DNA of 64,000 nt from an uncultured Actinomycetes bacterium. GTDB lineage: Bacteria > Actinomycetota > Thermoleophilia > RBG-16-64-13. The stretch covers positions 3,210-67,209 of the forward strand of contig CAIQPS010000029.1 in the NCBI GenBank assembly GCA_903873715.1, written 5' to 3'. This document shows positions 13,630 through 15,764 of the stretch, in pieces. Made by a program: the position numbers and the translations under genes. Each line of letters begins with the position of its first letter. Position 1 is the stretch's first letter. Below the pieces are notes generated by a model. That model worked only from the letters and a program-made list of their open reading frames with translations. It was not told the DNA's origin and did not search any database.

Positions 13630-14523
13630 TTGACGGGGATTCTGTTGCTGGCTTACGGGGGACCCGGATCCATCGAGGACGTTCCGGCGTTTCTCGATCA
13701 GGTCCGCGGGGGGCGACCCTATTCGGACGAGCTTCTGGCCGAGGTGACGGAGAGATACCGCCACATCGGCGGGGCCTCTCCCATGCCGGGCATCACCCGC
13801 AGCACCGCCGCCAAGGTCGCTCAGGCCTCGGGACTCCCCGCCTATGTGGGCATGCTCCACTGGACGCCCACGATCGAAGACACCGTCGAACAGATGGCCG
13901 GCGACGGCATCACCGACGTCTTCGCCGTCTGCATGGCCCCGCACTACAGCGCGGCAAGCATCGGGCGCTACCAGCGCCGGGTGGCCGCGGCAGCCGAAAA
14001 GCACGGGCTGTCATTCCGCATCGTGGAAGACTGGCATACCTCCGAGCCCTACATCCAGGGCCTGGCGGATTCCATCCGGGGCGAGTGTGCCAAGGCCGCT
14101 CCCGGCAAGGATCTCCCGCACATCGTGTTCTCGGCCCACAGCCTGCCCAAAGTGGCTCTTCCGGCCGGCGACCCCTATGAGGCGCAGTTGCGCGAGACCG
14201 CCGCGGCGGTGGCCGGCAAGCTCGGCATCCCCGCGACCGGCTGGACGCTCGCGTTCCAGAGTGTGAGCGGTCCGGCGGAAGAATGGCTCGGCCCCGCGGT
14301 CGAGCAGATCGTGCGCGAGCGCGCCGCCCAGGGCGACACGCAGGTGGTCGTCTGCCCCTTCGGCTTCCTGGCCGACCAGGTCGAGATCCTCTACGACCTC
14401 GACCTCGCCCTCAAACAAAAAGCGCAAGGACTTGGTGTCACCATCATCCGCACCCCTCTCTTGAACGACGGTCCCGCCACCATCGCCAGCCTGACCGGGC
14501 TGGTGGAAGGGAGGGCCGCATGA
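13630..14523 (+). CDS. hemH: Ferrochelatase (short Bacillus-type; likely coproporphyrin ferrochelatase)
   Basis: TTG start. ..LLLAYGGP.., ..HYS.., ..VFSAHSLP.. motifs. 297 aa. First gene of the coupled heme operon. Confidence 0.85.
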   Translation: MTGILLLAYGGPGSIEDVPAFLDQVRGGRPYSDELLAEVTERYRHIGGASPMPGITRSTAAKVAQASGLPAYVGMLHWTPTIEDTVEQMAGDGITDVFAVCMAPHYSAASIGRYQRRVAAAAEKHGLSFRIVEDWHTSEPYIQGLADSIRGECAKAAPGKDLPHIVFSAHSLPKVALPAGDPYEAQLRETAAAVAGKLGIPATGWTLAFQSVSGPAEEWLGPAVEQIVRERAAQGDTQVVVCPFGFLADQVEILYDLDLALKQKAQGLGVTIIRTPLLNDGPATIASLTGLVEGRAA

Positions 14524-15764
14524 ACGCCCCGCTGCAGACCCGTACCCAGCCCTGGCCCCGCCTGGTCTTCTGGGAGACGACGGCCGGCTGCAACCTGGAG
14601 TGCTCGCATTGCCGGCGCACCGACGTCTCCGACGACGTCATGCCCGACGAACTCACCACCGAGGAAGGCGAACGCCTCATCGACGAGATGGCGGCATGGG
14701 GCCGCAGCATCCTGGTGTTCTCGGGGGGCGAACCGCTCCTGCGGCCCGACATCTTCCGGCTGATGAAGTACGCCAATGAGAGCGGCGTCATCGTGGCGCT
14801 GGCGACCAACGGCACCCTCATCGACGAGCGCGTGGCCGCCAAGATCGCCGAAGCCGGCACCGACCGGGTGAGCATCTCGCTCGACGGGGCCGACGAAGCC
14901 ACCCACGACGCCTTCCGCCGCCTTCCCGGGTCCTACCAGGCCGCCCTGAACGGCATCCATCGTCTCAAGGAAGCCGGCGTCCCCTTCCAGATCAACGTCA
15001 CCGTGGCCAAGCACAACGCCGACCAGCTCGACCGGATGGTGGCGCTGGCCAAGGAACTGGGCGCCGCGGCGCTGCATCTCTTCCTGCTGGTGCCGGTGGG
15101 CTGCGGGATGGAGATCGCCGAGGAGCAGACCCTCCAGGCGGACGCCTACGAGGCGACCCTCAACTGGCTCTACGACACCGAGCGCCGCGAGCCCGACCTG
15201 CAACTCAGGGCCACGTGCGCGCCTCACTACTTCCGTGTGGTCAAGCAGCGCCAGGCGACCGAGTCCAAAGAGCAGCGGGCGGCCGCCATGAGCGCGGGAC
15301 ACCCCGGTGGTCACCCTGGCGGTCACCCTGGCGGGCGTCCCGGCGGGCGTCCCGGTGGGCATCCCGGTGGCCATCCAGGGCCGGTCGGGGGCGACGGCGA
15401 GCGCGGGGCGCTGCATGCCTACACACGGGGCTGCCTCGCCGGCACCGGCGTGTGCTTCGTATCCCACGTGGGCAAAGTCTACGGCTGCGGGTACATGCCG
15501 GTGGAAGCCGGCGACCTGCGCCAGACCAGTCTCGAGGATGTATGGCTCAACAGCGAGTTCTTCGCCGAGCTTCGGGACTTGGACGCGTTGAAAGGCAAAT
15601 GCGGGCCCTGCGGCTACAACAGGGTGTGCGGGGGCTGCCGGGCGCGTGCCTACGGCAGCACCGGCGACTACCTGGCCGAGGAGCCGTTCTGTGCATACAT
15701 CCCGGGCGGTAGCGCCGGGCGGGTCGCGGTGGAATCGAGCAGCGAAGGCGGAGCGGACAGATGA
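14520..15764 (+). CDS. Radical SAM/SPASM-domain protein of the AhbD/NirJ family (candidate anaerobic coproheme decarboxylase / heme synthase)
   Basis: The ATG overlaps the hemH stop (ATGA). CNLECSHC radical-SAM cluster motif. C-terminal SPASM cysteines (CGPCGYNRVCGGCRARAY). Contains the (GHPG)7 repeat. Its stop overlaps the hemA start. Confidence 0.7.
   Translation: MNAPLQTRTQPWPRLVFWETTAGCNLECSHCRRTDVSDDVMPDELTTEEGERLIDEMAAWGRSILVFSGGEPLLRPDIFRLMKYANESGVIVALATNGTLIDERVAAKIAEAGTDRVSISLDGADEATHDAFRRLPGSYQAALNGIHRLKEAGVPFQINVTVAKHNADQLDRMVALAKELGAAALHLFLLVPVGCGMEIAEEQTLQADAYEATLNWLYDTERREPDLQLRATCAPHYFRVVKQRQATESKEQRAAAMSAGHPGGHPGGHPGGRPGGRPGGHPGGHPGPVGGDGERGALHAYTRGCLAGTGVCFVSHVGKVYGCGYMPVEAGDLRQTSLEDVWLNSEFFAELRDLDALKGKCGPCGYNRVCGGCRARAYGSTGDYLAEEPFCAYIPGGSAGRVAVESSSEGGADR
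15297..15380 (+). repeat. In-frame 12-bp tandem repeat x7 encoding (GHPG)3(GRPG)2(GHPG)2 inside the radical SAM gene
   Basis: GGACACCCCGGT / GGTCACCCTGGC / GGTCACCCTGGC / GGGCGTCCCGGC / GGGCGTCCCGGT / GGGCATCCCGGT / GGCCATCCAGGG, read directly. Confidence 0.85.

Follow-up and report, generated by a model that had tools for sequence, protein, structure and literature searches.

A putative AhbD-type haem b synthase gene within a coproporphyrin-type haem operon of an uncultured Thermoleophilia-like actinobacterium

A nine-gene haem biosynthesis operon, in which a gene for a radical S-adenosylmethionine (SAM)/SPASM protein lies between hemH and hemA, is found on contig CAIQPS010000029.1 (assembly GCA_903873715.1) of an uncultured Thermoleophilia-like actinobacterial lineage. 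The window, i.e. the whole stretch of DNA that was analysed, is 64,000 nt long with a G+C content (GC) of 65-70% along its whole length. Its genes were called by codon-position GC, followed by a Pfam scan of essentially all real open reading frames (ORFs). The operon occupies the + strand from 13630 to 23922 in the order hemH, radical-SAM/SPASM, hemA, hemC, hemD, hemB, hemE, hemY, hemL (Table 1), and its ORFs have the very high third-position GC that is typical of real genes here. The radical-SAM gene has an ATG start with GGAGG 7 nt upstream, and overlaps hemH (14520-14523) and hemA (15761-15764) by 4 nt at ATGA; ATGA/GTGA coupling is also seen at five other operon junctions. No terminator-like sites were found on the + strand inside the operon. 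The whole set of nine seems to form a single transcription unit with translational coupling. A sigma-70 promoter scan upstream of hemH returned no site, a result that is uninformative at 68% GC. Three independent metagenome contigs carry the identical protein and operon, and one of them is 100% identical in DNA over the whole gene; as identical copies are found on independent contigs, the operon is not an assembly artefact. The initial annotation had described nine coupled genes, one of them a radical-SAM gene between hemH and hemA, and its coordinates, order and 4-nt overlaps are all confirmed.

Table 1. Genes of the haem operon and the repeat within the radical-SAM gene, with window positions and the scores or repeat parameters behind each call.
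Feature	Position	Strand	Evidence
hemH, ferrochelatase, 297 aa, no C-terminal Fe-S extension	13630..14523	+	PF00762 247 bits, TIGR00109 199 bits
AhbD-like radical-SAM/SPASM protein (putative oxygen-independent coproheme decarboxylase), 414 aa	14520..15764	+	TIGR04545 437 bits
Seven tandem (H/R)PGG tetrapeptides, aa 261-288	15300..15383	+	Tandem Repeats Finder (TRF) period 12 nt, 6.8 copies
hemA, glutamyl-tRNA reductase	15761..17089	+	TIGR01035 369 bits
hemC, hydroxymethylbilane synthase	17086..18048	+	TIGR00212 328 bits
hemD, uroporphyrinogen-III synthase	18045..18887	+	PF02602 192 bits
hemB, porphobilinogen synthase	18874..19956	+	NF006762 474 bits
hemE, uroporphyrinogen decarboxylase	19953..21005	+	TIGR01464 408 bits
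hemY, CgoX-like coproporphyrinogen oxidase, 539 aa	21002..22621	+	TIGR00562 241 bits
hemL, glutamate-1-semialdehyde 2,1-aminomutase	22618..23922	+	TIGR00713 584 bits

The family of the radical-SAM protein was assigned from NCBIfam model scores together with partial AhbD sequences. TIGR04545 "heme b synthase" (AhbD) scores highest, more than 100 bits ahead of the runner-up models TIGR04053 (332 bits) and NirJ2 (326 bits; NirJ2 is what AhbD-type proteins of Firmicutes used to be called), and the models for NirJ (199 bits), mycofactocin maturase (187), AhbC (179), NirJ1 (176) and PqqE (133) score far lower. NirJ, AhbC and NirJ1 are set apart from the window enzyme by these much lower scores, whereas superfamily and domain architecture are common to it, NirJ, NirJ1/AhbC and NirJ2, and tetrapyrrole substrates would be as well. 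The AhbD/NirJ type named in the initial annotation is thus borne out as AhbD, and not NirJ, AhbC, PqqE or a peptide maturase, the AhbD- and NirJ-specific hidden Markov models (HMMs) giving 437 and 199 bits, respectively. Protein searches return thousands of homologues, many of them carrying the Joint Genome Institute (JGI) name "heme b synthase" or "AdoMet-dependent heme synthase", and the closest named homologues are from Thermoleophilia and Actinobacteria metagenome-assembled genomes (MAGs), at 68-69% identity.

The AhbD sequences available for comparison are partial, having been recovered from a supplementary alignment (Fix et al. 2023, PMC10452713) that was read by machine, with optical character recognition errors and a missing block at approximately residues 11-66, and identities to them are approximate. 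The window protein shares its best HMM with the characterised AhbDs of Methanosarcina barkeri (Mbar_A1458, ~43% identity) and Desulfovibrio vulgaris (DVU_0855, ~40%), and with a Desulfosarcina-type AhbD (DSCW_66730, ~45%) included the identities span 40-45%. Further likeness to the characterised enzymes is seen in the sequence blocks ATCAPHYFR, T(R/K)GCL(A/G)GTG and CGGCRARAY, in the radical-SAM motif CX3CX2C (C24-X3-C28-X2-C31) and in the eight SPASM cysteines (C233, C305-X17-C323-X37-C361-X2-C364-X5-C370-X2-C373-X17-C391), all of these cysteines being invariant in 19 aligned relatives. The C-terminal CX2CX5CX2CX17-35C motif of AhbD (PMC10452713) is present, and the full eight-cysteine SPASM motif of AhbD binds two auxiliary [4Fe-4S] clusters (Fix et al. 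2023, PMC10452713). In an AlphaFold2 model the radical-SAM core is confident, and a Foldseek search of this model against the PDB retrieves the SPASM/twitch enzymes SkfB, BlsE, anSME, PqqE and SuiB, a placement with which a sequence-only PDB search agrees. The retrieval of only generic SPASM/twitch enzymes is explained by the fact that, to our knowledge, no AhbD structure exists.

The ferrochelatase and the oxidase of the operon point to the coproporphyrin-dependent pathway. HemH is a short, soluble ferrochelatase whose nearest structures are CpfC of Bacillus anthracis, Listeria monocytogenes and Bacillus subtilis (163-171 bits, versus ~97 bits for the human protoporphyrin ferrochelatase), and the best solved relative of HemY is B. 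subtilis HemY/CgoX (3I6D, 223 bits, versus 165 bits for Myxococcus xanthus PgoX, 2IVD). By these likenesses HemH is of the CpfC type and HemY of the CgoX type, with matching substrate specificities predicted for both; the coproporphyrin-dependent (CgoX, CpfC) character attributed to the operon earlier agrees with these nearest solved relatives. As HemE is present, and neither HemN nor HemF is found in the window, the operon is read as coproporphyrin-dependent with an AhbD-like last enzyme.

The coproheme decarboxylase ChdC (HemQ) had been said to be missing from the cluster, and this extends to the whole window. No ORF matches the Chlor_dismutase/ChdC family (PF06778) in Pfam scans of the 64 kb, the family is also absent from precomputed Pfam calls on identical metagenome contigs covering 34-58 kb, and two purpose-built Cld/ChdC HMMs, each made from one of two kinds of Cld-family genes in related loci, have zero matches at E<=10 among all six-frame ORFs of the window. 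Likewise, there is no Pfam or NCBIfam match to AhbA/B, AhbC, HemN or HemF within the 64 kb, a tblastn search of the window with an AhbC-type protein retrieves only the ahbD-like gene itself, and no sirohaem-branch, haem d1 or nir genes lie within the window. The window enzyme differs in context from sirohaem-route AhbD, having HemH, HemA and HemY as operon neighbours and no AhbA/B/C, and its arrangement is exactly that of the predicted "AhbD-like" step of coproporphyrin-dependent organisms, in which CgoX and CpfC are combined with an AhbD homologue and no other Ahb enzymes. "AhbD instead of HemQ" holds for the operon.

Relatives of the protein are present in at least 594 species genomes, from phyla including Chloroflexota, Actinomycetota, Acidobacteriota, Verrucomicrobiota and Planctomycetota. 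With one genome taken per species, the best 80 of these loci (56 Chloroflexota, 8 Acidobacteriota, 8 Verrucomicrobiota, 3 Actinomycetota, 3 Planctomycetota and 2 others) were examined over +/-10 kb, neighbouring genes being located by tblastn with the haem proteins of the window. hemY or hemH lies at most 2.6 kb from the orthologue in 51/80 loci overall, including 47/56 Chloroflexota and 3/3 Actinomycetota, and the exact nine-gene order is repeated in the three Actinomycetota MAGs (L003, L004 and L065). The tie between the ahbD-like gene and hemY/hemH is conserved across dozens of genomes.

A different setting is seen in the Verrucomicrobiota, whose clade members are 51-54% identical to the window protein. 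In 7/8 of these loci, as well as in one Acidobacteriota locus, an AhbC/NirJ1-type radical-SAM gene (TIGR04054 550 bits, TIGR04546 497 bits) is directly downstream of the orthologue (L076 at 11175-12365, L072, L068, L057, L078, L073, L066 and L063). An AhbC-AhbD pair is the classical context of the sirohaem route, where AhbD decarboxylates coproheme. Adjacency to ahbC is a further likeness to characterised AhbD, and as these members are paired with a separate AhbC-type gene, it is the AhbD role that is left for this clade. Judged from these gene neighbourhoods, a single AhbD-like clade is used in the sirohaem route as well as in the coproporphyrin route. The ahbD-like gene of the remaining Acidobacteriota loci that were examined is just downstream of multihaem cytochrome genes; those at L064:6136-9828 and L052:7663-9195 encode NapC/NirT-like, cytochrome c7 and MtrC-like proteins, the last fused to cytochrome b561. 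All of these settings link the clade with haem.

The reading preferred here, with a probability of roughly 0.8, is that the product of 14520-15764 is a radical-SAM haem b synthase of the AhbD type, which would finish the coproporphyrin pathway together with the CgoX-like HemY and CpfC-like HemH. An oxygen-independent AhbD-like last step on a pathway of this type had been proposed in the initial annotation, and it is supported by the HMM scores, the CpfC and CgoX types, the absences from the window and the conserved linkage. In this pathway HemE would make coproporphyrinogen III, HemY would oxidise it to coproporphyrin III, and HemH would insert iron to give coproheme. The reduced radical-SAM [4Fe-4S] cluster of the AhbD-like protein would then cleave SAM to a 5'-deoxyadenosyl radical, which would take a beta-hydrogen from the propionate of coproheme ring A, and subsequently of ring B; at each propionate, loss of CO2 and one electron would leave a vinyl group. 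Electrons would exit through the auxiliary SPASM clusters AuxI and AuxII, as modelled on the proposal for M. barkeri AhbD (PMC10452713), and the product would be protohaem, formed without O2 or H2O2. This mechanism is carried over to the window protein by homology. Substrate, product and pathway position are predicted to be the same as those of ChdC/HemQ; however, ChdC has the chlorite-dismutase fold, is unrelated in fold and chemistry, and depends on oxygen or peroxide (H2O2).

Several observations weigh against this assignment. With TIGR04545 the protein falls short of the 500 bits curated as the equivalog cut-off, and it still does so, at 456 bits, when a low-complexity insert is deleted. 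The whole clade is below the cut-off (437-465 bits), as seen with four relatives from other phyla (446-465 bits); on its scores the clade of the window protein is placed as a coherent sister clade to the AhbDs behind TIGR04545, and not as a marginal member of another family. The spacing between C233 and C305 is X71, versus X20-33 in the AhbD SPASM motif, because of an insert of ~40 residues, the other SPASM spacings showing no deviation. PVGCG (aa 193-197, 15096-15110), with an invariant extra cysteine, Cys195, replaces P(T/V)GR(G/A), a motif after the "FLLV" strand that is our own reading of the alignment and not a published criterion. The alignment of Fix et al. 2023 comprises 39 AhbDs, from archaea and sulfate reducers, and P(T/V)GR(G/A) is kept in every one of them. 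With respect to the pathway, no published assay was found for an AhbD-like enzyme from any coproporphyrin-pathway organism. CgoX is classically O2-dependent, so the encoded pathway is not obviously fully anaerobic. Finally, in 36/56 Chloroflexota relatives the hem cluster that holds the ahbD-like gene also contains a Cld/ChdC-family gene, and AhbD thus need not be the only decarboxylase.

The last of these points leads to the alternative that survives best, namely that the enzyme has the predicted activity but replaces nothing: a ChdC/HemQ would be encoded elsewhere in the genome and the AhbD-like enzyme would be a low-oxygen isoenzyme, as with HemF/HemN and PitA/AhbD. In Haloferax volcanii, genetics has shown that ahbD is needed only anaerobically and the ChdC-type PitA aerobically (PMC5746218). 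In Chloroflexota the co-resident AhbD and ChdC are probably low-oxygen and aerobic alternatives in the same way, and as both genes are in one cluster in many of these genomes, "replacement" could be "anaerobic alternative". The visible portion of the genome, moreover, is 64 kb. Against this, no ChdC is found within that window, and the custom HMMs detect no Cld/ChdC gene within +/-10 kb of the ahbD-like gene in the three Actinomycetota MAGs that have the same operon. Apart from this step the operon covers the whole pathway between glutamyl-tRNA and haem, an argument for the encoded enzyme being its terminal one. A ChdC/HemQ elsewhere in this genome is considered somewhat unlikely.

Far less probable is a different tetrapyrrole reaction, such as side-chain removal of the NirJ or AhbC kind, an oxygen-independent oxidation of coproporphyrinogen in the place of CgoX, or haem modification; altered chemistry would then account for Cys195 and the His-rich loop, both specific to the clade. 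The sub-threshold score, the substitution of PVGCG for PTGRG and the clade's own insert are in line with it, as is the action of the related SPASM enzymes NirJ and AhbC on other tetrapyrroles. However, the AhbC, NirJ and NirJ1 models reach only 176-199 bits against 437 for AhbD, the window has no sirohaem-branch or haem d1 genes, the Verrucomicrobiota members have a separate AhbC-type gene beside them, and an operon without a decarboxylase would stop at coproheme. A non-haem SPASM maturase of a peptide or cofactor, in the operon by chance, is effectively refuted by model scores and conserved hem linkage. The protein is like PqqE, MftC and sactipeptide maturases in sequence, and like SkfB, anSME and SuiB in fold, in a weak and generic way only, and the maturase models reach 130-190 bits where the AhbD model reaches 437. 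There is no gene for a precursor peptide, and a chance neighbour is incompatible with the 4-nt overlaps that the gene has with both hemH and hemA and with the conserved hem linkage in ~50 genomes.

In sum of its differences from characterised AhbD, the window protein has a sub-cut-off score, PVGCG and a ~40-aa disordered His/Pro/Gly insert, and PVGCG and a His-rich insert are clade-wide features. The insert, between the AuxI ligands C233 and C305, contains the (H/R)PGG repeats of Table 1, whose sequence is identical on an independent metagenome contig. Residues 260-309 are predicted to be disordered (predicted local distance difference test, pLDDT, <50 in the AlphaFold2 model), and the model is also of low confidence at residues 192-200, around PVGCG. 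Relatives have inserts of 24-91 residues at the same site, nearly always with GHPG- or HGHPHG-type motifs, and at least one His-Pro is found within the insert in 101/118 homologues; His-Pro-Gly-rich inserts of variable length are thus a property of most clade members, across five phyla. GHPGG motifs are additionally seen in an N-terminal extension of the Desulfovibrio desulfuricans AhbD (Ddes_0287), and the linker of PitA, the ChdC protein of haloarchaea, is likewise rich in His. Speculatively, the recurrent His-rich element may be a haem- or metal-handling element. That PVGCG and the loop are functional adaptations, for example to ligate coproheme or haem transiently at an axial position or to pass it on, or for iron or partner docking with CpfC, is a rather doubtful proposition at present. 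A full-text search found no published mention of the GHPGG motif that is relevant to AhbD, and as far as could be found the loop and Cys195 features have not been described previously.

The pathway variant itself, with AhbD in the place of ChdC, is already known from reviews, and the concept is not new. That AhbD ends the coproporphyrin pathway in some organisms is stated in PMC7242693 (2020), PMC10114771 (2022) and PMC13564367 (2026), and these three reviews credit the bioinformatic prediction of an AhbD-like terminal step to Dailey et al. 2015/2017. In Layer 2022 (PMC10114771) the coproporphyrin route is drawn with an "AhbD-like step", and the text has it that such an enzyme "might be responsible" anaerobically, and a Chemical Reviews history of 2026 (PMC13564367) places AhbD in coproporphyrin-pathway organisms, most of them without other Ahb enzymes. 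The published cases are generally Gram-positive anaerobes and facultatives, unlike the uncultured Thermoleophilia-like lineage of the window with its complete nine-gene operon. The operon is a clean and complete case of a haem operon with a radical-SAM AhbD homologue in the place of ChdC, and it or its close MAG relatives would be a good source of enzyme for the missing biochemical assay. The occurrence of one clade in both routes fits the published view of the coproporphyrin route as a hybrid in which an ancient terminal enzyme has been kept. Beyond a candidate for assay and the clade-wide loop and cysteine features, no conceptual change follows.

Among the other genes of the operon, hemH has a TTG start, with the ferrochelatase alignment beginning at residue 2. 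HemD consists of the HEM4 domain alone, without a fused methyltransferase. The start codon of hemB is uncertain, homology beginning at residue 32, and for hemE the ATG at 19953 is favoured over an alternative TTG at 19944 by a 350-aa call on an identical contig. HemY carries an insert at aa 229-271 (21686-21814), rich in Ala, Gly, Pro and Ser and of low complexity, which splits its alignment to the CgoX models and to 3I6D in two.

The Cld-family genes in the hem clusters of Chloroflexota are of two kinds. One is a ChdC-Rieske fusion of ~365 aa, which has a C-terminal Rieske [2Fe-2S] domain (72 bits) in addition to the PF06778 match (191 bits) and adjoins hemH/hemE and the ahbD-like gene; it is found at L007:4102-5196 on the - strand and in similar form at L009, L010, L033, L014, L015, L018, L022 and L028, among others. 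No published description of this fusion was found by full-text search. The other is a divergent Cld-like family of ~245-275 aa, scoring 40 bits to PF06778, in the hem clusters of Caldilineae and Chloroflexia. Its gene is between hemB and hemE or adjoins hemH, as at L013:17729-18556 on the + strand and similarly at L020, L026, L031, L032, L042, L045, L058, L061 and L067, among others.

The rest of the window is mostly housekeeping (RmuC, IMPDH, RecO, DeoC, PhoH, YbeY, SecA, RF1, RF2, FtsE, F1Fo ATP synthase, SHMT, AdoHcy hydrolase and ThyX, among others). The initial annotation had also claimed a pyruvate:ferredoxin oxidoreductase (PFOR), and the claim holds in part. A PFOR_II domain is present at 1-522, as a fragment that runs off the window start, and a thiamine pyrophosphate (TPP)-binding multidomain Fe-S flavoprotein at ~2853-6443. 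On the + strand, 1-6443 encodes this PFOR domain II fragment, a NuoE-like 2Fe-2S protein, a NuoF-like FMN/Fe-S protein and a large multidomain protein of ~1000-1200 aa with 2Fe-2S, GltD-like FAD/NAD, ferredoxin and TPP-binding domains; the start of its ORF is uncertain owing to an overlap with the gene at 1411-3321. Such a 2-oxoacid:ferredoxin / NAD(P)H oxidoreductase cluster, split or fused, is unusual. At 57767-59377 on the - strand, a 536-aa ORF joins the release-factor methyltransferase PrmC (PrmC_N + MTS) to a Sua5/YciO/YrdC (TsaC-like) domain; this apparent gene fusion adjoins prfA.

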